Source: Escherichia phage KKP 3715. Taken from it: DNA of 64,000 nucleotides. The notes under the pieces were generated by a model. The model had not been told where the DNA came from. It saw only the letters and a program-made list of their open reading frames with translations, and searched no databases. The translations under genes were made by a program, and so were the position numbers. Positions 2,751-63,146 of this stretch are shown here, piece by piece. Every line of letters begins with the position of its first letter. Positions within the stretch are counted from its first letter, which is position 1. The DNA is taken from the sequence record OR067834.1, one strand, 5' to 3'.

Positions 2751-3440
2751 ATGAGTGAGCTAACTAAGCAGCAGATCATTAATGCCCTACCTGCTAACTT
2801 CAAGAACAGTGTTAGTCAGGAATTGGTAGACACAATTAACAACATAACCCAAGACCAACTGGTTGCTGAAGCATTCCGTGAAAACTTCATCTCTTACTCT
2901 GGTGTTATGAAGGAAGGTAAGTTTAAGACACAGGACTACATGAATGCAGTTCAGTATGTGACTTACAAACACATGGGCTACTCAAATAAGGAAGCCTACT
3001 TCAAAACATTCCCTAACCGACAAGCAGAACTCATAGCACGAGGAACCAGTGAGAAAGATATTAGTGCTTATGTATCTGCTTATCACAGAGGTAAGTTAGT
3101 TAACCTCATCATGGAACAAAGTTTGGTTCCAGTGTGGATTGTGAACCAAGACAATTATCAGAAGGCAATCAATGTTCAGGTTGAACTAATGACTACAGCA
3201 GCAAGTGAGAAAGTAAGATGTGATGCAGCTAACTCTATCCTTACTCACTTAGCTAAACCTAAAGACCAGGTGACTAATATCAATCTGGACCTGAGAGAAA
3301 ACTCTGGGTTGACTGACCTCAAGGCAACACTTGCTGCATTAGCTGAACAGCAAATTAATGCAATCAATAGTGGTGTACCTACTAAAGAGATTGCTGGTTC
3401 TAAACTAGTACGTGCAGATGAGGACATTACAGATGTCTGA
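2751..3440 (+). CDS. hypothetical protein immediately upstream of terminase large subunit; possible small terminase subunit
   Basis: 229-aa ORF overlapping the terminase start; position only, no diagnostic motif. Confidence 0.5.
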   Translation: MSELTKQQIINALPANFKNSVSQELVDTINNITQDQLVAEAFRENFISYSGVMKEGKFKTQDYMNAVQYVTYKHMGYSNKEAYFKTFPNRQAELIARGTSEKDISAYVSAYHRGKLVNLIMEQSLVPVWIVNQDNYQKAINVQVELMTTAASEKVRCDAANSILTHLAKPKDQVTNINLDLRENSGLTDLKATLAALAEQQINAINSGVPTKEIAGSKLVRADEDITDV

Positions 3441-5016
3441 GTTAATTAAACAGGAACTGGATGAATGGCTGGACCAGGTGGATTACTCTAATTCATCAAA
3501 CTATGTTCCTAGTCAGTTTGCTCTTACCTTTGCCAACTTTATTAAGTTGGTTAATGGCAAAGAAGGTGAATCCAACAAAACACCCCCGGTTCACCTGAAG
3601 ATGTTGGATAAGATGATTACCCCGAACCAGTATGTAGTTAACCTGTGTTTCCGTGGTGCAGGTAAGACTGCTGTGTTCATGGAATACTTTACTTTGTTCC
3701 TGGCAGTGTTTGGTCACTTACCTAGTTTAGGTAAGGTAGAAGGAATGATCTACGTATCTGACTCAATGGATAACGGTGCTAAGTCTGCACGTAAGAACAT
3801 TGAGTTCCGATACAAGAATAGTGAGTTCCTTCGGCAGTGGATACCTGAAGCTACTTTTACAGATAACCTGTTAGAGTTTCGCAATGCAGAAGGGCATCGA
3901 CTAGGTGTTAAGTTGTTTGGTGCTAAGACTGGTCTTCGTGGTACGAAGATATATGGTAAGCGTCCAACACTTTGTGTACTGGATGACTTGATTAGTGATG
4001 GTGATGCTAACTCTAAGACCAGCATGGAAGCTATTAAGGATACTGTCTATAAAGGTGTGAACCATGCCCTTGACCCAACACGTCGTAAAGTAATCTTCAA
4101 CGGTACTCCTTTTAATAAGGAAGACATCATCATTGAAGCAGTAGAGTCCGGTGCATGGGATGTCAACGTATGGCCCGTGTGTGAGAAGTTCCCATGTAGT
4201 AGGGAAGAGTTTCAGGGTGCATGGGATGACCGTTTCTCATATGACTACATCAAAGCCCAATACGACATGGCAGTTAAGACTGGTAAGCTGGCTGGTTTCT
4301 ACCAGGAACTTATGCTTCGTATTAGTTCTGAAGATGAACGTCTTGTTCAGGATAGTGAGATTAAATGGTATAGCAGGCAGCAACTGTTAAGGATGAAGTC
4401 CTGCTACAACTATTACATTACAACCGACTTTGCTACCTCGGAGAAACAGACCAGTGATTACAGTGTCATATCAGTTTGGGCTTATAGTTCTAATGGAGAT
4501 TGGTTCTGGGTTGACGGTGTGGCTAATCGCCAGCTTATGGATAAAAACTTTGACGACTTGTTCCGTCTGGTTCAGGAATACCAACCACAAAACGTTGGTG
4601 TCGAAATTACAGGACAGCAAGGTGGATTCATTTCACTCCTTCAGAAAGAAATGATTAACCGAAATGTCTTCTTTAACTTTGCATCCTCTGAGGGTGGTAA
4701 GCCTGGCATCCGTCCTGTAACCTCTAAGCTGTCACGCTTTAACCTGGTAGTTCCGTGGTTCAAAGCTGGTAAGATGTACTTCCCGGAAGAGTTGAGAGAT
4801 ACAACTATTATGGGTCTGTTCATGGGCCAGATTAAACTAGCTACCATTAATGGGATTAAAGGTAAGGATGACTGTATTGATACTATCTCCATGCTGGGTT
4901 ATCTCAATCCTTGGAAACCACAAGCAGGGATGACTTTGGTGGATAACAAGGGTGACCCGATGTGGGATGAGGAAGAAGAAGATAGTGTTAACCCACTACG
5001 TTCATACATTGTGTGA
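3412..5016 (+). CDS. terL: terminase large subunit
   Basis: 534 aa; Walker A-like CFRGAGKTAV and Walker B-like LCVLDDLISD in the N-terminal ATPase region; size and position match N4-like terminase. Confidence 0.9.
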   Translation: MQMRTLQMSELIKQELDEWLDQVDYSNSSNYVPSQFALTFANFIKLVNGKEGESNKTPPVHLKMLDKMITPNQYVVNLCFRGAGKTAVFMEYFTLFLAVFGHLPSLGKVEGMIYVSDSMDNGAKSARKNIEFRYKNSEFLRQWIPEATFTDNLLEFRNAEGHRLGVKLFGAKTGLRGTKIYGKRPTLCVLDDLISDGDANSKTSMEAIKDTVYKGVNHALDPTRRKVIFNGTPFNKEDIIIEAVESGAWDVNVWPVCEKFPCSREEFQGAWDDRFSYDYIKAQYDMAVKTGKLAGFYQELMLRISSEDERLVQDSEIKWYSRQQLLRMKSCYNYYITTDFATSEKQTSDYSVISVWAYSSNGDWFWVDGVANRQLMDKNFDDLFRLVQEYQPQNVGVEITGQQGGFISLLQKEMINRNVFFNFASSEGGKPGIRPVTSKLSRFNLVVPWFKAGKMYFPEELRDTTIMGLFMGQIKLATINGIKGKDDCIDTISMLGYLNPWKPQAGMTLVDNKGDPMWDEEEEDSVNPLRSYIV

Positions 5017-18999: not shown

Positions 19000-21642
19000 A
19001 TGGGCTTATTCAGTGGGAAGACCAAAGTATACGTAGCATCCTCTGTCTATAACATGGCAGGGGATATACATAAGCGCCCAAACTATATGAAGACTGTAGT
19101 CATCGGTAAGATTGTTGCTGATACAGGATTCACTATGGCAGACACTATCTCTGATAGTTATCTGAATGGACCGGGTATTCGTATGCGACTGTTCTCCAGC
19201 TGGAGTAAGAACCACTATGATTCAGAAGTTGGTATGGCAGGAGCTTCATTAGGTGTGCTGGCTAAGATTGACCCTACTATTATAGAGGGTCAAATTACCC
19301 CACCTGCTGGGGAGACTGTCTATGTTCAGGCAGCAGAGATTGGCTTTGCTGACTTTGAGCAATGGTGTGACCAGTATCTTTATGAGAATGCCCCAAGTCG
19401 AATAATGGAGCGATTCGACGTAGACATTGATGAAGATACTAATGAAATTACTATGACCTCCCTTGATGGTGGTTCTACCATTACATTCACACCTACTAAC
19501 TTTGAACCAGGTGCTTTGTATCTCTATGCTGATTACACTTTCTATAAGTCCCCAGCTACCAATCCACCGGTAGTAGGGCCGACTACTGTCTATGATAATG
19601 AAGGCGACTTACCATCTACCCTGCTATGGACTACCATCTCAAGTGATACGACAGCTAATACAACCAATCTTACTAAGACTATACAGACTCATTCTGTTTA
19701 CTCTGATGGTAGACCGGATGAAGACAGTACTGTTACTGAACCAAGTGTGGATAACTGGAATTCTTACGTTAAGGTTTACCGTAGAGGATTTACTGAGAAA
19801 CCTGATGATGTAACTGTGGTTGTATCTGACAGGGTAATGACTCATACAAAGTTTGGTGAGGTTCAATCTAGCACTACTGTAACTACCAATGTTGTTGATT
19901 TAGGTGGTGGTGTTACTCGCACAGATACAATCACTACAACTACAGAGACACTGGTTCGTAAGTACTCATCCCAGACTACCCGTACTGATACTGAGATGAC
20001 TGCTGTTGGTACACCTAAGATGCTTATCTATAAGCAGAACTCAGGCAACGTTGCACTTGATTCACTGTTTGAGACTGAAGCTACCGATAACCGATTCTAC
20101 CCATTCATTCCAATCAGGAATGATAAGCAATGGGTAGAGAATGACCCAATCTACCCCCACTGTAAGAAGGCACTCTATAAAGCTACCGGTGGTAAACTCA
20201 ATAAAGTAGTGACTGAGCTTAAGAAGAATGACGACATAGATGATATCCAATACATCTATGGCACATTCGGTGTATCTCTTAATACTCCAGAGGATACTGC
20301 TAAGGAATACATCTACCGTTTCTTTCAGATGGCTACTGAAGCATTCCCACCTGACCCAACCTACCCTACACTGGAAGCAGTGATTGCAGGTTATCAGGCA
20401 GCAAATGATGCAGTTGATGCATACGTAGAATGGTGGAACAGGCAGGAAGGTCAGGTAGTTGGAACACCTCCTCCACTACCGGAATACCCTGTCATACCTA
20501 AGCGAGAGTTTAGGGTACATAGTAATAAGCAGTACAAGTATGACATGACTATTGGTTGGAACTATGTGTCTGAAACTACTCATTCTGGTGAAGCATGGTC
20601 TGGTGCTAAACAAGGACAACTTCGAGCCAGATATGCAGGGGATATAACTCTTACACGTAAGAACATACGTACAGGTGCTAACAAAAAGCTGGAAGTTACC
20701 ACTACGTTTTATTCTATGCAGGAGTATGAATTGCTTTGGCAGGATGGTAATGACACCTACCGTAAACTTAGGGTACTGGGTCTGAACCACAACAACAGGG
20801 TATATAAAAATAAGTCAGTGAGCATTGATGTTGCCGAAGCAATGGGTGATGCAGAAGAGAGTGGATTCATTATTCCACTACACACTAACATCTACCGTTC
20901 AATGTCACTGACTCGTAGTACTCAACTGTCTACTGCTTGTTCCTACTTAGTGATGAACTCATATAAGAAGGTTAAGCAGAAGTGGTATACGACATCTGCC
21001 TTTAAGATTGTGGTTGTTGTAGTTGCTGTGGTTGTATCCGTATTCACTATGGGTGCTGGTGGTGCAGGTATTCTTGGGGCATACGGTGCAGTTGGTGCAT
21101 CACTTGGTTTTGTTGGATTAGCTGCTGTAATAGTAGGTGCTGTAGCAAACGCTATTGCTGCAATGATTCTGGTATCTATTATCACTAAAGTATCCACTTC
21201 TCTGTTTGGTGATAAGCTAGGCTTTATCATTGCTGCTGTTGCTTCAATGGTAGCTATGAACGTTGGCACTGCTATGTCTACCGGTACATCCTTATCTACC
21301 TTAGCCAGTGAAATGATGAATGCCCAAAACATCATGCAGCTTACCAGTTCAGTAGGTAACGGTATTAGCCAGTATATTAATGCATCCACGGCTGCTACTA
21401 TTCAGAAAGCAGAGAATGTAATGCAGCAGTACAATACTGATATGATGGCAATCAATAAGCAGTATGAAGAAATGTTTGGTACTGCTGGACAGGGTGTAAT
21501 TGACCCTATGCAATTTGTGTCAATTGAGTCGATGGATTCTTTCCTCTCACGTACTCTTATGACTGGTTCGGATATAGCTGACATGTCTTTAAATATGATT
21601 GGAAGCTACTCTGATATGACTCTTAATACAGACCTTGTTTAA
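19000..21642 (+). CDS. large virion protein with C-terminal Gly/Ala-rich multi-TM region; putative ejection/channel protein
   Basis: 880 aa; residues ~660-760 are strongly hydrophobic (SAFKIVVVVVAVVVSVFTMGAGGAGILGAYGAVGASLGFVGLAAVIVGAV...). Confidence 0.6.
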   Translation: MGLFSGKTKVYVASSVYNMAGDIHKRPNYMKTVVIGKIVADTGFTMADTISDSYLNGPGIRMRLFSSWSKNHYDSEVGMAGASLGVLAKIDPTIIEGQITPPAGETVYVQAAEIGFADFEQWCDQYLYENAPSRIMERFDVDIDEDTNEITMTSLDGGSTITFTPTNFEPGALYLYADYTFYKSPATNPPVVGPTTVYDNEGDLPSTLLWTTISSDTTANTTNLTKTIQTHSVYSDGRPDEDSTVTEPSVDNWNSYVKVYRRGFTEKPDDVTVVVSDRVMTHTKFGEVQSSTTVTTNVVDLGGGVTRTDTITTTTETLVRKYSSQTTRTDTEMTAVGTPKMLIYKQNSGNVALDSLFETEATDNRFYPFIPIRNDKQWVENDPIYPHCKKALYKATGGKLNKVVTELKKNDDIDDIQYIYGTFGVSLNTPEDTAKEYIYRFFQMATEAFPPDPTYPTLEAVIAGYQAANDAVDAYVEWWNRQEGQVVGTPPPLPEYPVIPKREFRVHSNKQYKYDMTIGWNYVSETTHSGEAWSGAKQGQLRARYAGDITLTRKNIRTGANKKLEVTTTFYSMQEYELLWQDGNDTYRKLRVLGLNHNNRVYKNKSVSIDVAEAMGDAEESGFIIPLHTNIYRSMSLTRSTQLSTACSYLVMNSYKKVKQKWYTTSAFKIVVVVVAVVVSVFTMGAGGAGILGAYGAVGASLGFVGLAAVIVGAVANAIAAMILVSIITKVSTSLFGDKLGFIIAAVASMVAMNVGTAMSTGTSLSTLASEMMNAQNIMQLTSSVGNGISQYINASTAATIQKAENVMQQYNTDMMAINKQYEEMFGTAGQGVIDPMQFVSIESMDSFLSRTLMTGSDIADMSLNMIGSYSDMTLNTDLV

Positions 21643-54848: not shown

Positions 54849-55223
54849 TCAACCATTGCGTTTACCTGCCATTGCTTGAAGAACGAATACAGCCATATCA
54901 GATGCCATATCATCAGTAATATCATTAACCGTTCCGTAAGGTAACGGACCATTATCTTCCCAGTTATCAAGCACATTCTGCACTTCAGCTAAACCAGCCT
55001 GAATCATCTCTTTGCTTGGTTCCAACCATAATTTACGTTCTTCTGCCAGTGCAGCAATGCACATACACAGGGAAGCGATATTAGCTGGGCAAGCAGCAAT
55101 ATCACCAGTAACTGCAATATCACTAAGTGGAACAGCCTTACCAGTTTTACTATGAATAACTTCAGGATTAATCATGGATTTGCTCCAGGTTATGGGCAGG
55201 AATTGGGAAGCATGGATAGTCAC
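54849..55223 (-). CDS. hypothetical protein
   Basis: 124-aa ORF. Confidence 0.45.
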   Translation of the reverse strand: MTIHASQFLPITWSKSMINPEVIHSKTGKAVPLSDIAVTGDIAACPANIASLCMCIAALAEERKLWLEPSKEMIQAGLAEVQNVLDNWEDNGPLPYGTVNDITDDMASDMAVFVLQAMAGKRNG

Positions 55224-55410: not shown

Positions 55411-55434
55411 AAAAAGACCTCCCGGAGGAGGTCT
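55405..55434 (-). terminator. intrinsic terminator (AGACCTCC-CGGA-GGAGGTCT, then U-tract on the minus strand)
   Basis: Read from sequence. Confidence 0.6.
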
Positions 55435-55439
55435 TAGGT

Positions 55440-55676
55440 TTACTTACGATTCCGTCCTACGAATTGTAATAGACGTTCCTTAGCAACATCCTGTTCCTTG
55501 ATAGCTACATAGTCGCGTGCATAGTAATACACACACCATAAGCCAATAGAACATGCAGAATATCGAGCCACTACGAAGAACATCTCTTCCAGGCTCTGTG
55601 CACCATGCAGTGCAAATACAAATTCCAGAACCAGGATGATACTTATAATCATTGCTTGGATAGCTAAACGTTTCAT
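55440..55676 (-). CDS. small membrane protein (two predicted TM helices)
   Basis: 78-aa ORF; hydrophobic segments IQAMIISIILVLEFVFAL and CSIGLWCVYYYA. Confidence 0.45.
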   Translation of the reverse strand: MKRLAIQAMIISIILVLEFVFALHGAQSLEEMFFVVARYSACSIGLWCVYYYARDYVAIKEQDVAKERLLQFVGRNRK

Positions 55677-56617: not shown

Positions 56618-57060
56618 TAGAATGACCTTAGATAGTTGGTAATACCACTACGGTTTTCTGTAATCCTCTTGGCCTGAACATATACCAGCTTAAACTCACT
56701 ACGGGGTAGTTCCTGTAATACTGCTATACCTTCAGTAAGGGCCACAGAACACGCTACAGCGGTTTCTTTTTTAAAGGAGTACAAGTCTTCATACATGAGG
56801 GCTTCATACTCTTTACGGAGCATACAGAGAGCATCTCTTGCCTTATCACTTACTTCTTGTGAACCAGCAGACATAGCTAAGCTGTATATGATAAAGACTT
56901 GTTCGAAAACAAAGTCCAGTAATCTATCAGGGTTGCTAGTCCCCATGAACAATTTTGTTATATAGGAACGAGCTTTACGGTTGAGTTCGTACTCATCCTC
57001 TATGCCTTTATTATAAAGAACAGGATTTCGCTCCCTTTTTCTTAGGAATGGAATACGCAT
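56617..57060 (-). CDS. hypothetical protein
   Basis: 147-aa ORF, start/stop coupled to neighbours. Confidence 0.5.
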   Translation of the reverse strand: MRIPFLRKRERNPVLYNKGIEDEYELNRKARSYITKLFMGTSNPDRLLDFVFEQVFIIYSLAMSAGSQEVSDKARDALCMLRKEYEALMYEDLYSFKKETAVACSVALTEGIAVLQELPRSEFKLVYVQAKRITENRSGITNYLRSF

Positions 57061-57548
57061 TAGTATTTACTACCTCTTCTATACCAAGGGTAATGGTGGG
57101 TAGTGCTCTTGCCTTTGAACACATCCTTGGTATAAGGATTCTTTTGTATTTGAGCCAGGTAAAGATGCATGTCGTCATAGCAAGGACTAAGCCAGAACTT
57201 ATCTATGATACGATCTACCTTAGCTTTCAGATGAGGTTCAGGAGGGATGTATGGGAAAACATTAAATGATCTACTAGTCCATCCTTTCTGAATAGCAGCT
57301 TGCATTGCTGCGTAAACATCGGGACCAATTCCATTTTCTTCTACTTGGTCATGTATAGTTTTACCTAAAGTAAGCATTGCAGTTTGTTCCAGTTTACTTA
57401 AGTCCAGTCCATATAAGATAGACTTACCATTTTGTCTGTTTGACATAAGAGTACCTGTAATTAAAAAAGCCCACTGGTTAGGTGGGCTTGGATTAGGAGA
57501 TGGATAAGCAATGAGCTGGAAGTAACTTCCACAAGCATCACTATACAA
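57060..57548 (-). CDS. hypothetical protein
   Basis: 162-aa ORF; a terminator inside the annotated N-terminus suggests the true start is an internal Met near 57446. Confidence 0.5.
   Translation of the reverse strand: MYSDACGSYFQLIAYPSPNPSPPNQWAFLITGTLMSNRQNGKSILYGLDLSKLEQTAMLTLGKTIHDQVEENGIGPDVYAAMQAAIQKGWTSRSFNVFPYIPPEPHLKAKVDRIIDKFWLSPCYDDMHLYLAQIQKNPYTKDVFKGKSTTHHYPWYRRGSKY
57461..57488 (-). terminator. intrinsic terminator (AGCCCAC...GTGGGCT, then UUUUUAA on the minus strand)
   Basis: Read from sequence. Confidence 0.6.
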
Positions 57549-57563
57549 TGATGCTTAGGTTAG

Positions 57564-57842
57564 TTACTCTGCTTTACTGCCACCATTGGTTTGAACAACA
57601 GTTACATTTGTAACTTGGTTCTGACCTTTGTTGGACAGTGACCAAATCAGTGCTACTACCCAGAAGACTAAAGACCAGCCTAATACGATATTGAGTACAC
57701 CAATGCCCCACTTAGAGGCATGGCCTCGTGCAAAAGCAATAATGGTAGGGATAAGGTATACAGCTAGTGCAAATAACAGAACAAGGATTGCTGCTAAAGA
57801 TTCCATGATGGTTCCTATGTGGGGTTGAGTTAGTTTCTTCAC
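57564..57842 (-). CDS. superinfection-immunity-like small membrane protein
   Basis: 92 aa; LIPTIIAFARGHASKWGIGVLNIVLGWSLVFWVVALIWSL resembles the Imm_superinfect (PF14373-type) motif as I recall it. Confidence 0.6.
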   Translation of the reverse strand: MKKLTQPHIGTIMESLAAILVLLFALAVYLIPTIIAFARGHASKWGIGVLNIVLGWSLVFWVVALIWSLSNKGQNQVTNVTVVQTNGGSKAE

Positions 57843-57879
57843 AAATAGCCCAACTATGCTGGGCTATTTAGGCAGCTAC

Positions 57880-58089
57880 TTACTCAGCATCTTTGCTTGC
57901 AGGAGCAAGAGCTTTCTTCAGGTAATTACGTACCGAACGATAGGTTTCTTTGGTGTCCATAGCGCTATCATTTACAAATACGATACGTGCACAGTCAGAC
58001 AGCGGAATCTGTTCTACTGCAATTACATTTGCAGCATTAATGGTTAAGCGTACATCTGAGGTTGCATGAGTTACTTGAAATACTGACAT
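57880..58089 (-). CDS. hypothetical small protein
   Basis: 69-aa ORF. Confidence 0.4.
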   Translation of the reverse strand: MSVFQVTHATSDVRLTINAANVIAVEQIPLSDCARIVFVNDSAMDTKETYRSVRNYLKKALAPASKDAE

Positions 58090-58119
58090 ACTGTTTCCTT
58101 GATTAATCTGGATAGCCTT

Positions 58120-58572
58120 TTATTTTGAAGGTCTAGCAGATACTGGTTTGTTTGGTTGACACTGGTACTTACCTTCATAACGACAATGCTCTGCTATCTC
58201 TTCGAAGATAACCTGAGCTATGCCAGTACCAGCTTTTATTGTAACAGGCAAAACACCCGAATAACGAAGCTCAAGAGTAAGGAAACCTTTCCACCCTGGT
58301 TCGATATTGGTTGTCATGCTTGCATCAATCCCCTTTCTGGCCCATGTACTCTTATTAAGTACACGGCCCATAAGGTTTGGTGGTACGTCAAACTCTTCTA
58401 TGGCTGACGCTAGTACGAATCGACGCCCCAAGAACATAGTCACATCCTGCTTAATACGAATATCGTATCCGCATTCTGTAAGACCCCAAGAGAAACCATT
58501 ACTGGTTTGCTTAGAGTCCACCATGTTCTTTATAGGAGCCAGTTCTAATAAACGACTGCGGTTAATAATCAT
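58120..58572 (-). CDS. dCTP deaminase / dUTPase-fold protein
   Basis: 150 aa; motifs GLTECGYDIRI, NKSTWARKGI, EPGWKGFLTLEL and GTGIAQVIF typical of the dCD/DUT family. Confidence 0.7.
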   Translation of the reverse strand: MIINRSRLLELAPIKNMVDSKQTSNGFSWGLTECGYDIRIKQDVTMFLGRRFVLASAIEEFDVPPNLMGRVLNKSTWARKGIDASMTTNIEPGWKGFLTLELRYSGVLPVTIKAGTGIAQVIFEEIAEHCRYEGKYQCQPNKPVSARPSK

Positions 58573-59978
58573 TTCATTCCTTTAGGGATATGAACTACCT
58601 CCCCAAAAGGTACGGTAGCATTGGGATTATTCAGAACACACCATATGATAGGAATATCAAATGGTAATTCTTCCATAGGGCGAACATACATATCAGAGAA
58701 TATGATTGCAGCGGTTGGCTTATTCTTAATAATCCAATCACGTACCGGTACAAGGTTTGTACCACCACGACCGGTAATCTTAATCTCTTCAAAAGTATCT
58801 TCTTCAGTGATGTCTATTTCTTCTTGGATAATATCGTCGAAGGTAATAAGAGTCATCTTCTTAGGATTGAACTGGCTCTTGACGTAGGCAACCTCTGAGT
58901 TAAAACGCAGAGAGTCAGCACTACTAATAGAACCGGATACATCTTCAAAGTAGGCTAAGTGCCGTAAACGTCCTTCATCATCTTCCAGTGATGGTAGATA
59001 GATGTCAGTGAATCGACGATTAGGTCTGGCCCACGTATAGTGTGTATCATCAATGTCGGTAAAGAAATTCAGCAGGACTTCCTGCCATGGAACCACTGGT
59101 TTTAGGAATTGGGTAATAACCTCTTCCATACGACCAGCACCTTTACCGGGCATCATTCCACCAGCCATCTTCTGGCTTTGCATTGCACGTACTACGTTGT
59201 TGACAACAGCACCCTGGGACTGCCCCGAAGAGGGAGCTTTCATGTCGCCAGCAAGACCTGCTCCAGCACCCCCTGACGGCTTCTGCCTTTTCTGAGGGTT
59301 CTTCATCAGGTCATCGTAGATGTCTTCTTCGACCCATCCTTTATATTGAGGGTCTTTGCAAATGCCTTCGTCGATACCAGTGAACTTGTAACCATCTTCC
59401 TCTAACTGAAGGTTGATGAAGTGGTCACATGCTTGGTTCCATACTTCCGGGTCACGGCTTCCACAACGGATGCCATGCAGATATGCTACATGCCAGAGTT
59501 CGTGCATTAGCACTGTTTCTCTTGCATCAGGGCACATCCAAATAAAGAAGTCTGGGTTGAAATGGAGTTCTATCCCATCGGTACATGCAGTGGGACAGTC
59601 TTCACGTTTCCATGAGAACTTAAGGCTACACAGCAATGAACCAAAAAACGCAGCAGACTTGCCTAGAAAGGCTTGGGCCTGAATACGGTCATACTCACGC
59701 ATGAGTTGTTCATCACTGAGTGTGTGCTGAGGTATCTGGTTCATGTTGTGATTATCCGTGAATGTAACGAGAGATGTTGGCAGCAGCCTTACGCCATTCA
59801 GGGGTAGCCTGAATTTCTGGTAATGCTTTGCCCACTGTACGGAAGTACAGAATCTTATGAGTGAACGTTTTAAAGCGTTCAATGTACTGAAGTACATCAA
59901 CGAAATTATCTTCAGTGGTCTTGTTAGCCAGATGGTTAACGGTAGCCCAGCACAGGTTATTATCTTCCGGCAGTGCAC
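58569..59978 (-). CDS. vWA-domain protein with N-terminal HExxH metallopeptidase-like region
   Basis: Likely true start ATG at 59744 (MNQIPQ), 7 nt after the ATPase stop; HExxH VLMHELWHVAYLHG; MIDAS-like FEDVSGSIS. Confidence 0.7.
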   Translation of the reverse strand: MHCRKIITCAGLPLTIWLTRPLKIISLMYFSTLNALKRSLIRFCTSVQWAKHYQKFRLPLNGVRLLPTSLVTFTDNHNMNQIPQHTLSDEQLMREYDRIQAQAFLGKSAAFFGSLLCSLKFSWKREDCPTACTDGIELHFNPDFFIWMCPDARETVLMHELWHVAYLHGIRCGSRDPEVWNQACDHFINLQLEEDGYKFTGIDEGICKDPQYKGWVEEDIYDDLMKNPQKRQKPSGGAGAGLAGDMKAPSSGQSQGAVVNNVVRAMQSQKMAGGMMPGKGAGRMEEVITQFLKPVVPWQEVLLNFFTDIDDTHYTWARPNRRFTDIYLPSLEDDEGRLRHLAYFEDVSGSISSADSLRFNSEVAYVKSQFNPKKMTLITFDDIIQEEIDITEEDTFEEIKITGRGGTNLVPVRDWIIKNKPTAAIIFSDMYVRPMEELPFDIPIIWCVLNNPNATVPFGEVVHIPKGMK

Positions 59979-60804
59979 AGCCCAAAGGGTCTTTGACTAC
60001 CTTCTCAATCGTAATCATACGATTATATACCTGGGTGAACTGAACAAACTCTACAGCCTTACCTGGTGTAACGAAACCACTGTAGTACAGGGAATCCTCG
60101 TCAGGCAAAGCACCTTCTGGTTGGTTCTTGAGGTCTTTATTAATGAAGTCCCAAGTACGAGGGCAACAGAATGTTTTGTTCTTATGAGCAGGATCGAAGT
60201 CGTGCAAATAACCCGGGTTAGCATGTAAGAATGCAACCAGACGCTCATCCCATTCTTGTGGAATCATTACGTCTTCAACAAAGATGTCGAAGTTAAGTTC
60301 CATTTCGAAGTGGACGACACGGGACTGCATTGCAGTACCCAGTGGGTTAACGATAGCACGGTCAGTAGCTTTGTTACCGGCACAGATAATCATCACATTA
60401 GGGTGAAGTTTCTTCTGACCAGTCATACGGTCGAGAATCAGTTTGTATGCAGCAGCTACTACTTCTTTCTTAGCTGAGTTGAACTCATCAAGGAACAGGA
60501 GCCAGCCATTATAACCTTCTGGTACTTCATCTCCCTCAATAGGGAATAAGTCAGCGAAAGGGATAAACTCTGCTCGGTCACCATTACGGAATGGTAGACC
60601 AGACAAGTCTTCCGGGGCAGAAGTAGACAGACGATGGTCAATCAGCTTCATACCAAATTCTTCTGCAACAGAACGAATAATTGCAGACTTACCCATGCCA
60701 GGTGATGAAGTCAGGAACGGTACGTTACCTGCTTGCAAGGCACGGATAATAAAGTTACGGGCTTGGCGTGTATTACATACAGTCAAGGAGTCAATGCTCG
60801 CCAT
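59752..60804 (-). CDS. MoxR-like AAA+ ATPase
   Basis: 350 aa; Walker A LTSSPGMGKSAIIRS; Walker B LLFLDEFNSA; partner of the downstream vWA protein. Confidence 0.75.
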   Translation of the reverse strand: MASIDSLTVCNTRQARNFIIRALQAGNVPFLTSSPGMGKSAIIRSVAEEFGMKLIDHRLSTSAPEDLSGLPFRNGDRAEFIPFADLFPIEGDEVPEGYNGWLLFLDEFNSAKKEVVAAAYKLILDRMTGQKKLHPNVMIICAGNKATDRAIVNPLGTAMQSRVVHFEMELNFDIFVEDVMIPQEWDERLVAFLHANPGYLHDFDPAHKNKTFCCPRTWDFINKDLKNQPEGALPDEDSLYYSGFVTPGKAVEFVQFTQVYNRMITIEKVVKDPLGCALPEDNNLCWATVNHLANKTTEDNFVDVLQYIERFKTFTHKILYFRTVGKALPEIQATPEWRKAAANISRYIHG

Positions 60805-60838
60805 TTACTTACTCTCCTAAAGTTAATGGAATTACTAA

Positions 60839-61165
60839 TTAAGATTTAACGCATGGATACGCTGTATCAATCGCTAACAGAACCATGTCTGATGGTATTT
60901 TTACTGCATTAACCTTTCGGTCATACAGAATAATAGAGGCCACTCTGTCAAAAATGTGCCCTAACTTCATATCGTCAGGTACACAGTTCTTTCCTGCTTC
61001 CACCCCCATAGTAACCATGCCCATGAAGTAACCCTGATTCACAAAGTTTGCATTATTGGCTTTGTAGTCAGCAGCAGCTTCCAGCAAGGTTGCACGACTA
61101 GATGCTTGAGCACCGAATGACAGAACTGATAAAGCTACTACAGCAACAGTAATTAAAGTTTTCAT
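60839..61165 (-). CDS. secreted/periplasmic small protein (signal peptide)
   Basis: 108 aa; N-terminus MKTLITVAVVALSVLSFGAQASS. Confidence 0.5.
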   Translation of the reverse strand: MKTLITVAVVALSVLSFGAQASSRATLLEAAADYKANNANFVNQGYFMGMVTMGVEAGKNCVPDDMKLGHIFDRVASIILYDRKVNAVKIPSDMVLLAIDTAYPCVKS

Positions 61166-61351
61166 TTAGTTACCTTTTAACTCATTGAGTTGAAGTACTC
61201 CGGTAGGGGTTAATGACCACCCAAGACCAGCATTGAACTGTACTAAGCCCAGCTTCTTAAGAGACTGTGCGGTTTTATTATTACGGTTGCTGGTGGCAGA
61301 ACCACCTTGAACCATGCGAAGGAAAATTGCTTGGGACTGAGTAAGTTTCAT
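61166..61351 (-). CDS. hypothetical small protein
   Basis: 61-aa ORF. Confidence 0.4.
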   Translation of the reverse strand: MKLTQSQAIFLRMVQGGSATSNRNNKTAQSLKKLGLVQFNAGLGWSLTPTGVLQLNELKGN

Positions 61352-61569
61352 TTCTTCTCCGGTACGAACTGCATTACACAGTTTTGATTACGAGGGATAT
61401 TCAATTCACATTCATGCTTGAGGGTTTGGGTTACAGAGTTTGGAGTAGAACCAAAGTAGGTATTAGAAATAGCTACAATTCCTGCACCAAAGAACCCTCC
61501 TAACACGAACGAGAAGAATGCAATCTCTTTATACATTTCCTGGCTCCAGATGTGAAAAACCCCAGTCAA
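61348..61569 (-). CDS. small membrane protein
   Basis: 73-aa ORF with one hydrophobic helix. Confidence 0.4.
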   Translation of the reverse strand: MTGVFHIWSQEMYKEIAFFSFVLGGFFGAGIVAISNTYFGSTPNSVTQTLKHECELNIPRNQNCVMQFVPEKK

Positions 61570-61597
61570 TGCTGGGGTTTATCTATCAGTTTATACT

Positions 61598-61858
61598 TTA
61601 CAGACCATGAGGTCGGCATAGACTACCTGAACCAAAGGAACGGTGTCCAAGTCGGCCCAGGATTAGATTGCTTACTTCAGCAGCAGCACGGCTGAATGCT
61701 TTAAAGTCAAAGACTACGACACCAAATAGCGGGGCTGCGATAGCAGCTACCATGACCGGTGTCAGGTCATTTAGTGACATACCCAAGATTACGTGGGCAG
61801 CATAAGCAATAAGGCCCATAACAGCACTACAACCGAATCCAATAGCAATTTTACGCAT
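61598..61858 (-). CDS. small membrane protein
   Basis: 86-aa ORF with two hydrophobic helices. Confidence 0.45.
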   Translation of the reverse strand: MRKIAIGFGCSAVMGLIAYAAHVILGMSLNDLTPVMVAAIAAPLFGVVVFDFKAFSRAAAEVSNLILGRLGHRSFGSGSLCRPHGL

Positions 61859-61912
61859 AGTTACCTTCTTAGTTAGTAGATTGATACATATTCATATAAC
61901 AGACAAACAATA

Positions 61913-61945
61913 GTCAAAAAAAGACCCCCCTTCAATAGGGAGGTC
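61913..61945 (-). terminator. intrinsic terminator (GACCCCCC/GGGAGGTC stem, then U8 tract on the minus strand)
   Basis: Read from sequence; preceded by a second hairpin GGGGTT-TAT-AACCCC at 61966-61980 directly after the stop of the upstream gene. Confidence 0.65.
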
Positions 61946-61995
61946 AATCTTGAGGGTTTCCTTTCGGGGTTTATAACCCCAAATAAGGGATACCC

Positions 61996-62829
61996 TTACT
62001 CTGCAACAGTAACAGCGATGGTTACGTCTACAGTACCATTGGTAACTACTACAGAAGTAGCATCACCAGCAGCCACTGGTTTAACTGTCAGTACGTTACC
62101 AGCAATGGTAGCTGTAGCACGGGCGGAATCCGGAGCAGTCTTGATAGATAAAGTACCAACAGACGCTCCAACAGGCATAGCAGTAATGGTTACAGTCTTA
62201 CCATCTGTGGTATCGTCAGCAACGGACAGAGCCAGTGAAGCAGGAGTAGCTACCAGTGAGCTTGCTTCGTAGTAGCCTACAGCCAGCAGTGAGGTATCTT
62301 CTACCGTGGTTCCATTAGCATCAGTAACAATCACTTTATAAGTACCAGCAGAAGCAGCTGTTACGTTACTAAGGGTCAGTGTTGCAGTAGCAGCAGATGC
62401 GTTATCACCAGAATCAATATCAGCGAATACTGCACCAGCAGTGTTAGCTTTGTATTGCCACTTATAAGTAAATGGTGCTTTACCGCCTGCTACATCAATG
62501 TGCCAGTTAATATCTTCACCTTCGATAGTGGAGATTACACGAGGCAGTTTGGTAGCAATAGTTAGTCGTGGAGTAGCTTGCATGTCGATAGTGACCGACT
62601 GCATATCCACGATGTTGTCAGGCCAGAAGCCTTCTTCAGCAGGGTTTTTAGCAGAGCGTTTATACAACAGGTCACGAACACCGTGAAAGATAACTAAGCT
62701 ATCGGGGTAAGTGGCATCTGGATGTACAAAAGTACCTACTTCCACAGAACCACCTGGAACACTACCACCTGAATCAAGCACGGTAGCAACGTTGGTAGTT
62801 TTATTAAACGCAATCTTTAAGGTTGGCAT
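61996..62829 (-). CDS. Ig-like domain capsid decoration protein (N4 gp17-like)
   Basis: 277 aa; Ig-like segment PFTYKWQYKANTAGAVF...TLTLSNVTAASAGTYKVIVTD and a C-terminal Ala/Thr/Val-rich repeat region; followed by tandem terminator hairpins. Confidence 0.65.
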   Translation of the reverse strand: MPTLKIAFNKTTNVATVLDSGGSVPGGSVEVGTFVHPDATYPDSLVIFHGVRDLLYKRSAKNPAEEGFWPDNIVDMQSVTIDMQATPRLTIATKLPRVISTIEGEDINWHIDVAGGKAPFTYKWQYKANTAGAVFADIDSGDNASAATATLTLSNVTAASAGTYKVIVTDANGTTVEDTSLLAVGYYEASSLVATPASLALSVADDTTDGKTVTITAMPVGASVGTLSIKTAPDSARATATIAGNVLTVKPVAAGDATSVVVTNGTVDVTIAVTVAE

Positions 62830-62903
62830 GCATGTATCCTCTTGAGTAAATATGCCTAATCATTATGAAGGCTGATAAAAAAGAAAGCCACCCTCAAGGG
62901 TGG

Positions 62904-63122
62904 CTAGTTGTTGATGTGGTAAATCCAGTAAGCTATCCAACCGGCTAATACAAAACATCCGGCAGAGTACGCTCCATAGTAGCAATAAGCAAACTTGGAT
63001 TTGTGGGCGTTAACTATAGTGAGTATCACAATAGCAGATAAAACTATCAGTACGGTTTTAGTAATAACATCATAGATGTCTGGCATGTTGACTACCTCCA
63101 AGCAAAAAATAAAAAGCCCCAT
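62904..63122 (-). CDS. small membrane protein
   Basis: Track start lies inside the upstream terminator hairpin; ATG at 63086 with GGAGG RBS is more likely, giving a 60-aa product. Confidence 0.4.
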   Translation of the reverse strand: MGLFIFCLEVVNMPDIYDVITKTVLIVLSAIVILTIVNAHKSKFAYCYYGAYSAGCFVLAGWIAYWIYHINN

Positions 63123-63138
63123 ACCCGAAGGTATGAGG
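63103..63138 (-). terminator. intrinsic terminator after the RNA polymerase subunit gene (stem CCUCAUACC/GGUAUGGGG with UUCG loop, then U-rich tract)
   Basis: Read from sequence. Confidence 0.6.
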
Positions 63139-63146
63139 CCAGTTTA

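Follow-up and report, generated by a model that had tools for sequence, protein, structure and literature searches.

The question raised by this locus is why a virulent phage keeps small, envelope-targeted proteins among its early genes, and what these proteins may do. The locus lies in a 64,000-nucleotide stretch of Escherichia phage KKP 3715 (OR067834.1), referred to here as the window, in which an earlier note had pointed to five small open reading frames (ORFs) for membrane or secreted proteins between 55440 and 61858. The window derives from a Gamaleyavirus (Schitoviridae, Enquatrovirinae), a virulent G7C/N4-like podophage of E. coli, the closest relatives of which are vB_Eco_F22 and PhAPEC5 at ~94% identity; a megablast search with positions 57000-62900 as query matched 64 phage records, all of them Gamaleyavirus. 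Two minus-strand genes are central to the analysis. The first, Imm (57564-57806), encodes an 80-residue protein of the T4 Imm family with two transmembrane (TM) segments and is the last gene of a predicted transcription unit starting at 61536. The second, sp108 (60839-61165), encodes a 108-residue protein predicted to be exported to the periplasm by Sec and to adopt the Rap1a/Tai4a fold, an orphan homologue of type VI immunity proteins. Taken as a whole, the region rather probably represents a set of accessory genes through which a virulent Gamaleyavirus acts on the cell envelope, and this estimate extends to the mechanisms proposed below for Imm and sp108.

Imm and the set of small envelope proteins

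Imm is a full-length homologue of T4 Imm, and this family assignment is secure. A profile search, the test that the earlier note had named as able to overturn its motif match, placed Imm well above the threshold of PF14373 (Imm_superinfect), with 61.9 bits and E = 5.3e-17 against a cut-off of 27.9 and with profile positions 1-42 of 42 covered. T4 Imm itself (from NC_000866) scores 58.2 bits against the same profile. BLASTP aligned the two proteins over 82 columns at 30% identity (residues 1-74, E = 8e-11), and PHROG 1039, "immunity to superinfection", was matched at E = 2e-31. Hydropathy peaks are located at residues 7-25 and 35-53. It can be observed that Imm and T4 Imm share their length class (80 vs 83 residues), the two-TM layout, a full-length alignment and the level of the Pfam score; both are carried by a virulent coliphage, with the gene among early or nucleotide-metabolism genes. 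By tblastn the Imm domain was found in 349 phage records, which include all those of Gamaleyavirus type, T4-like Klebsiella and Citrobacter phages, and Acinetobacter myophages. N4 itself has no counterpart between gp27 and gp28. Among the Gamaleyaviruses the C-terminal tail varies (67, 80 or 86 residues), and the records of relatives already label the gene a superinfection or membrane immunity protein. By homology, a superinfection-immunity activity can be expected: like T4 Imm, the protein would most likely be inserted in the host's inner membrane during infection and block DNA transfer from later phages. No report of a DNA-entry block by an Imm homologue was found in the searched literature for any N4-like phage.

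The gene had previously been drawn as a 92-residue ORF (57564-57842). Both the gene and its Imm_superinfect motif stand, whereas the GTG start at 57842 was rejected, as it directly abuts a hairpin and lacks a Shine-Dalgarno sequence. The start at ATG 57806, with AGGAA 5 nt upstream, is the one annotated in relatives and gives the 80 residues stated above.

All five ORFs of the earlier note were recovered on the minus strand as conserved protein-coding genes, with PHROG matches at E = 1e-31 to 1e-55; their full-length homologues extend to 50-60% identity, and the long contigs among these are phage contigs of ~70 kb. Two further genes had escaped that note, namely g61 (61166-61351), which encodes a soluble 61-residue protein, and tm60 (62904-63086), which encodes a two-TM protein. 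A crude gene call gave 29 small (<=130 residues) probable genes in the window, eight of which carry a TM-like or signal segment. Such a segment is present in 7 of the 13 small genes within 54.7-63.2 kb compared with 1 of 16 elsewhere (Fisher p = 0.0097), the single outside case being the holin-like gene beside the endolysin. The clustering is thus upheld with seven of the eight in 54.7-63.2 kb, while the idea of a single cluster is not, because the genes are distributed over several terminator-bounded units. The accessory set appears to be embedded in the early and middle genes between RNAP2 and rIIA as separate units rather than as one machine. In the N4 gp32-like 108-residue protein at 54849-55175 (minus strand), a cysteine-rich hydrophobic patch, IAACPANIASLCMCIAALA, scores as TM-like; the stretch is probably buried inside a soluble protein and inflates the membrane count by one. 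Hydropathy analysis supported one TM segment in the 62-residue protein (tm63) and two each in the 86-, 80- and 60-residue proteins (tm86, Imm and tm60). For the protein at 55440-55676 (tm78), one segment lies above the threshold, and a second was recognized by eye.

sp108, a Rap1a/Tai4a-like exported protein

The signal peptide claimed earlier for the 108-residue protein is borne out by its sequence pattern. A lysine-rich n-region (MKT) is followed by a hydrophobic core at residues 3-19 and a cleavage motif, AQA/SS, and there is no lipobox cysteine. sp108 would accordingly be exported by Sec, cleaved after AQA and folded into a disulfide-stabilised five-helix Rap1a/Tai4a domain. The reference for this comparison is Rap1a: its subunit has five helices and a signal peptide of 26 residues, and the disulfide Cys78-Cys122, which connects the alpha2-alpha3 loop with the C-terminus, is essential (PMC3852654). 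In sp108, Cys61 and Cys105 are invariant in the family; Cys61 is located in the loop after the helix at residues 41-57. The two cysteines are 44 residues apart, in the alpha2-alpha3 loop and at the C-terminus, the same places and spacing as in Rap1a, and a structural disulfide Cys61-Cys105 as in Rap1a is predicted.

The sequence evidence for the relation with Rap1a is weak but consistent. All 13 aligned sp108 homologues give a sub-threshold match to Pfam Rap1a, with a best E of 4.9e-5. A profile search of 1.84 billion representatives recovered 17 proteins, the distant ones of which exceed the Rap1a cut-off with 53-67 bits. When the wider profile was compared with the whole PDB, only Agrobacterium Tai4 (E = 0.012) and Rap1a (E = 0.25) were matched, and the alignment takes in both cysteines as well as the C-terminal (F/Y)PC motif. 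A phmmer search of the PDB with sp108 gave no match.

The structural evidence is stronger. The AlphaFold2 (AF2) model of sp108 has a predicted local distance difference test score (pLDDT) of 83.6, rising above 90 in the mature part, and consists of five helices. In a Foldseek search of the PDB, the top seven matches were Tai4/Rap1a chains throughout. On the basis of the model, sp108 has the compact five-helix Rap1a/Tai4a fold. The solved members of this fold, Rap1a/Tai4a of Serratia marcescens (3ZFI, 4BI8) and Agrobacterium Tai4 (6IJE, 6IJF), are immunity proteins against type VI amidase effectors. Unlike these proteins, sp108 comes from a virulent phage and is an orphan, without an adjacent Tae4/Ssp1 effector or type VI cluster; its neighbours are the 61-residue soluble protein g61 and a MoxR-like ATPase.

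Homologues of sp108 are present at the same position in three divergent N4-like phages (L008, L009 and L017), and a Band_7 lipoprotein similar to N4 gp20 was observed near the Rap1a-like gene of L009 (5902-6765). When sp108 was used as a single-sequence query against one-per-species bacterial genomes, no close bacterial relative was found, and a bridging Rap1a protein (P0177) as query against bacterial genomes gave three loci, all weak and partial. GenBank records of phage relatives carry the label "Tai4" (UE-S5b, UE-M3, UE-M6 and PBM-2) or "Rap1a" (Moonfish), and UniProt/BFVD describes the proteins of SP5M and Bp4 as "Rap1a immunity protein domain-containing protein". The publication on UE-S5b makes no comment on the "Tai4" label, and literature searches found no study of a type VI immunity gene in a lytic phage.

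Possible targets of sp108

Rap1a neutralises the DL-endopeptidase Ssp1 by a steric block within a heterotetramer (PMC3852654). By extension from the fold, sp108 is best read as an inhibitor that acts in the periplasm on a papain-like peptidoglycan endopeptidase. It would most likely bind a DL-endopeptidase of Tae4/Ssp1 type that acts in the periplasm and sterically block its active site. Such inhibition would preserve the sacculus of the infected cell up to lysis by the phage itself. For sp108, the earlier suggestion of "superinfection exclusion or envelope modification" thus gives way to envelope protection, a different and more specific role, while for Imm the exclusion part is supported by profile and homology. 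The enzyme could be a type VI effector of a neighbouring bacterium; it could also be a wall-cutting enzyme brought by another phage, in analogy to T4 Spackle, which inhibits the gp5 lysozyme, or it could belong to the host. In the form that we propose tentatively and with low confidence, the orphan Rap1a/Tai4a-like protein of a virulent phage would shield the infected cell from the peptidoglycan-cleaving type VI effectors of neighbouring bacteria during the latent period, the divergent allele classes of Gamaleyaviruses that are nearly identical elsewhere would match different attackers, and the products of tm63, g61 and sp108 might act together.

Several points weigh against these proposals for sp108 and Imm. 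The match of sp108 itself to Pfam Rap1a (PF18602) reaches 18.1 bits (E = 0.004), under the gathering score of 27.7. Identity to the solved Tai4/Rap1a structures is only 10-15%, too low for a judgement on whether the effector-binding surface is conserved in sp108. The endolysin, which consists of GH108 and PG_binding_3, and the tested virion proteins contain no Tae4/NlpC-P60-like partner, and no peptidase or hydrolase domain was detected in these virion proteins (Pfam E <= 0.01, PHROGs), a set from which the 3,456-residue virion RNA polymerase ORF was left out; since this search came up empty, sp108 is regarded as an orphan immunity homologue without a partner in the genome. The distribution of alleles is also less specific than it first appears. 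Across 56 phage records, 29 sp108 alleles show 85-96% identity and 27 show <60% (mostly 34-38%), with a few intermediates, and this dimorphism was considered as specific evidence of an arms race and rejected, as the same mosaic replacement affects dCTP deaminase, gp27-like, tm78 and tm60. As regards Imm, the window belongs to a podovirus, with a virion RNA polymerase that is injected into the host, whereas T4 is a contractile-tail T-even phage; because the T-even phages on which T4 Imm acts deliver their DNA by an apparatus of quite another kind, the specificity of the podovirus protein is uncertain. A 2025 preprint states that N4 has no characterised superinfection-exclusion system (PMC12642591).

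Two observations were made alongside these comparisons. An 880-residue ORF among the virion structural genes (19000-21642, plus strand; PHROG 2220) has three strong hydrophobic segments at ~residues 670-750, which would fit a membrane-inserting ejection protein, and no peptidoglycan-hydrolase domain was detected in it. The dCTP deaminase (58120-58572, minus strand) is 98% identical to that of PhAPEC5 vs ~45% to those of F22, Bp4, ST4, UE-S5b and nithesis; since the backbone is otherwise ~90% identical, the whole allele has been replaced, and the same applies to gp27-like, tm78 and tm60.

An incoming phage as the source of the enzyme leads to a different reading, for which T4 is the model. T4 combines Imm with Spackle (Sp, gp61.3), a small exported helical protein that inhibits its own tail lysozyme in the periplasm (PMC7677548). 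By functional analogy, sp108 would inhibit the virion peptidoglycan-cleaving enzyme of incoming phages rather than a type VI effector and together with Imm would form a two-layer exclusion at the periplasm and the inner membrane, like Sp and Imm of T4. Placement of sp108 and Imm in one predicted transcription unit is consistent with such a pairing, as is the presence of both genes in the Gamaleyavirus-type records searched and in the divergent relative L008. The similarity to Spackle, itself the product of a virulent coliphage that also makes Imm (PMC7677548), is limited to a small exported helical inhibitor of a peptidoglycan-cleaving enzyme: no sequence or fold match exists between the two proteins, and Spackle is absent from the match lists of the structure searches. 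The targets also differ in kind, being a lysozyme domain for Spackle and cysteine endopeptidases for the Rap1a-type proteins. We regard this analogy as unlikely to describe the true role of sp108.

The host offers a third source of enzyme. Housekeeping NlpC/P60 endopeptidases of E. coli belong to the same superfamily as the Tae4/Ssp1 effectors. If sp108 bound one of them (MepS, MepH or similar), it could freeze wall remodelling or prevent premature lysis in the latent period. The orphan status of sp108, with no effector partner in the phage, would suit a host target, and so would the nature of the Tae4/Ssp1 effectors as papain-like cysteine endopeptidases (PMC3852654). Against this, narrow specificity for the cognate effector is the rule among known Tai4/Rap1a proteins (PMC3852654), and no precedent for host-enzyme targeting by such a protein was found in the searches, so that a host target is judged highly improbable.

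The other membrane genes, transcription units and the accessory slot

Every gene between ~34.5 and 64 kb is carried on the minus strand. In the direction of transcription, RNAP2 (truncated by the end of the window) is followed by tm60, a Hoc-like decoration protein, tm86, tm63, g61 and sp108, then by the MoxR-like ATPase (N4 gp24), vWA (gp25), dCTP deaminase, gp27-like and Imm, and finally by gp28-like, gp29-like, ThyX, tm78, gp31- and gp32-like and rIIA. In a consensus terminator scan, terminator-like hairpins were over-represented in this region, with 18 found vs 5.9 expected. The terminator downstream of Imm (57467-57489, minus strand) has an 8-bp stem followed by a T run, and that after the Hoc-like gene, upstream of tm86 (61923-61945, minus strand), has a 9-bp stem followed by TTTTTTT; both are also annotated in PhAPEC5. 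The same scan placed terminators on either side of tm60 (63115-63140 and 62886-62905) and directly downstream of tm78 (55414-55435). An intrinsic-terminator-like hairpin after tm86 (61555-61580, minus strand; CCCCAG-CATTGA-CTGGGG then TTTTT) was read from the sequence and is unlisted by the consensus scan; it belongs to an indel missing from PhAPEC5.

From these positions, a unit tm63-g61-sp108-ATPase-vWA-dcd-gp27-Imm is predicted to extend from 61536 to 57467, closed by the 57467-57489 terminator, and it is by the terminator positions that Imm and sp108 are assigned to the same unit. The other predicted units are tm60 alone, the Hoc-like gene, tm86 alone, and gp28-gp29-thyX-tm78. Translational coupling is indicated by ATGA overlaps at tm63/g61 and thyX/tm78 and by a TAAATG junction at g61/sp108. 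Within the long unit, at 59752-59978 (minus strand), the mechanical vWA ORF, with its GTG start at 59978, extends into the ATPase gene; translation more likely begins at ATG 59744 (391 residues), as relatives annotate. In Bp4, UE-S5b and nithesis, HNH endonuclease insertions occur between or within the ATPase and vWA genes; none is present in the window. The gp27-like 69-residue protein (57880-58089, minus strand) shows a faint Pfam bpX6 match (E = 0.0017, below the cut-off). bpX6 is a domain of MoxR-vWA-beta-propeller ternary systems, and the gp27-like gene lies just downstream of the phage MoxR-like ATPase and vWA genes.

The first gene of this unit, tm63 (61348-61536, minus strand; PHROG 7508), encodes a single-pass membrane protein of 62 residues. 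The earlier note had proposed two small membrane proteins in 61348-61858, and both are real; the start of its "73-residue" ORF at TTG 61569 was discarded, as it lies inside the loop of the terminator following tm86 and lacks a Shine-Dalgarno sequence. ATG 61536 has GGAG 7 nt upstream and gives 62 residues. The C-terminal 18 residues of the family, CELNIPRNQNCVMQFVPE, contain two cysteines ten apart (Cys-x9-Cys) and are invariant across 13 diverse members, while the TM anchor diverges freely. That selection acts on the protein is shown by synonymous changes, which occur in the first half of the motif. The final ~30 nt of the gene are nearly fixed in DNA as well and include the start and the Shine-Dalgarno sequence of the gene that follows. 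The family comprises 76 homologue clusters, and the long contigs among them are all ~70-76 kb and N4-like.

The downstream gene, g61 (minus strand; PHROG 7665, E = 1e-35), encodes a protein without a TM segment, which on a reading by eye appears winged-helix-like; beyond this pattern there is a faint S19e match. In every case, including relatives with only ~40-50% identity, a g61-like soluble protein is encoded between a tm63-like and a Rap1a-like gene. The position is kept in L008 (4514-4702) and L017 (6271-6450), and unrelated insertions occur between the three genes in divergent relatives. This arrangement hints that the tm63-like, g61-like and Rap1a-like genes form a functional trio.

The three remaining membrane genes, like tm63, are real and restricted to the N4-like lineage. 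Between two terminators lies tm86 (61598-61858, minus strand; PHROG 26763), a single-gene cassette with its own Shine-Dalgarno sequence and terminator, which encodes an 86-residue two-TM protein with a conserved basic C-terminal tail; the tail is invariant as FDFKAFSRAA...RLG.R...RP. The gene occurs in 11 of 53 matching phage records and is absent from G7C and PhAPEC5. Since divergent phages carry it at this same place, repeated loss of an old gene is a more likely history than recent acquisition. The AF2 model of its product is of low confidence (pLDDT 60.7). A weak sigma-70 promoter for the cassette (TTGACT-15-TATGAA) was seen by eye, is unlisted by the scan and is not claimed. The last gene of the gp28-gp29-thyX unit is tm78 (55440-55676, minus strand; PHROG 12633), the 78-residue product of which has one clear TM segment, a probable second and a charged C-terminal tail; its relatives fall into two allele classes, at 85-92% and 41-42% identity. 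Finally, tm60 (minus strand; PHROG 12530), also a single gene between two terminators, has a GGAGG Shine-Dalgarno sequence and encodes 60 residues. It is G7C gp16.1-like, and the RefSeq record of PhAPEC5 carries the note "similar to gp16.1 of G7C".

For these four proteins of 78, 62, 86 and 60 residues, the earlier reading as exclusion or envelope-modifying factors was a guess only, to which Pfam, NCBIfam, PADLOC and PHROGs add no lead. No significant Pfam match was found for any of them, and when the full set of eight small proteins was compared with NCBIfam and PADLOC, nothing meaningful on function emerged. The absence of matches in Pfam, NCBIfam and PADLOC would also be consistent with service in the phage's own infection cycle, where the small membrane proteins, possibly including Imm, could set lysis timing, anchor replication or assembly to the membrane, or cause ion leakage. 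The invariant C-terminal motif of tm63 implies a conserved binding partner, and a homologue of the lysis-inhibition gene rIIA lies next door, both of which would fit such a role. The lysis cassette, however, is located elsewhere, at ~10.9-12.3 kb (a holin-like gene, the GH108 endolysin and an ORF annotated as spanin in relatives), tm86 is dispensable in most relatives, and G7C-type phages are reported to lack lysis inhibition (PMC12642591). A role in the phage's own cycle is consequently considered unlikely.

Comparison with other N4-like phages places these genes in a wider context. In N4 itself (L019), gp18 (2669-2983), a P22 gp17-like "superinfection exclusion" gene, occupies the slot flanked by the Hoc-like gene and the ATPase, together with N4's own set of envelope proteins at the syntenic position (3058-4909), with gp19 and gp23 as two-TM proteins and gp20 as a lipoprotein. 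No sequence homology was detectable between the N4 slot genes and tm63, g61, sp108 or tm86 of the window; what the two slots share is the syntenic position and a bias towards small envelope-targeted and exclusion-related genes. A PF17420 gene (GP17, "superinfection exclusion gene product 17") was found downstream of the Hoc-like gene in ST4 (L002; 7196-7510, E = 7e-44) and L017 (4393-4857, E = 7e-47), and one also occurs in the slot of L018, like L017 a metagenomic locus. The corresponding slot of the window lacks a PF17420 gene and is filled by tm86 only, which is without a significant Pfam match. Extra small soluble genes are present in the slot of Bp4, UE-S5b and nithesis. The slot is thus a conserved accessory island, the replaceable content of which is biased to the envelope and to phage conflict.

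The genes described here do not constitute a new kind of system, as superinfection-immunity and Tai4/Rap1a labels are already present on the records of sister phages. Among N4-like phages, Imm nevertheless provides a first candidate for an exclusion gene. Whether phages exclude one another is of importance in phage-therapy cocktails against pathogenic E. coli, in which Gamaleyaviruses are used. Of the two genes, the Rap1a-like one is the more interesting, as it raises the question of why a virulent phage carries a homologue of type VI immunity proteins. If sp108 does neutralise type VI effectors, lytic phages would be investing in the survival of their host against bacterial competitors. Should its targets instead be wall hydrolases carried by phages, it would represent a second, structurally unrelated solution to the task performed by Spackle in T4.

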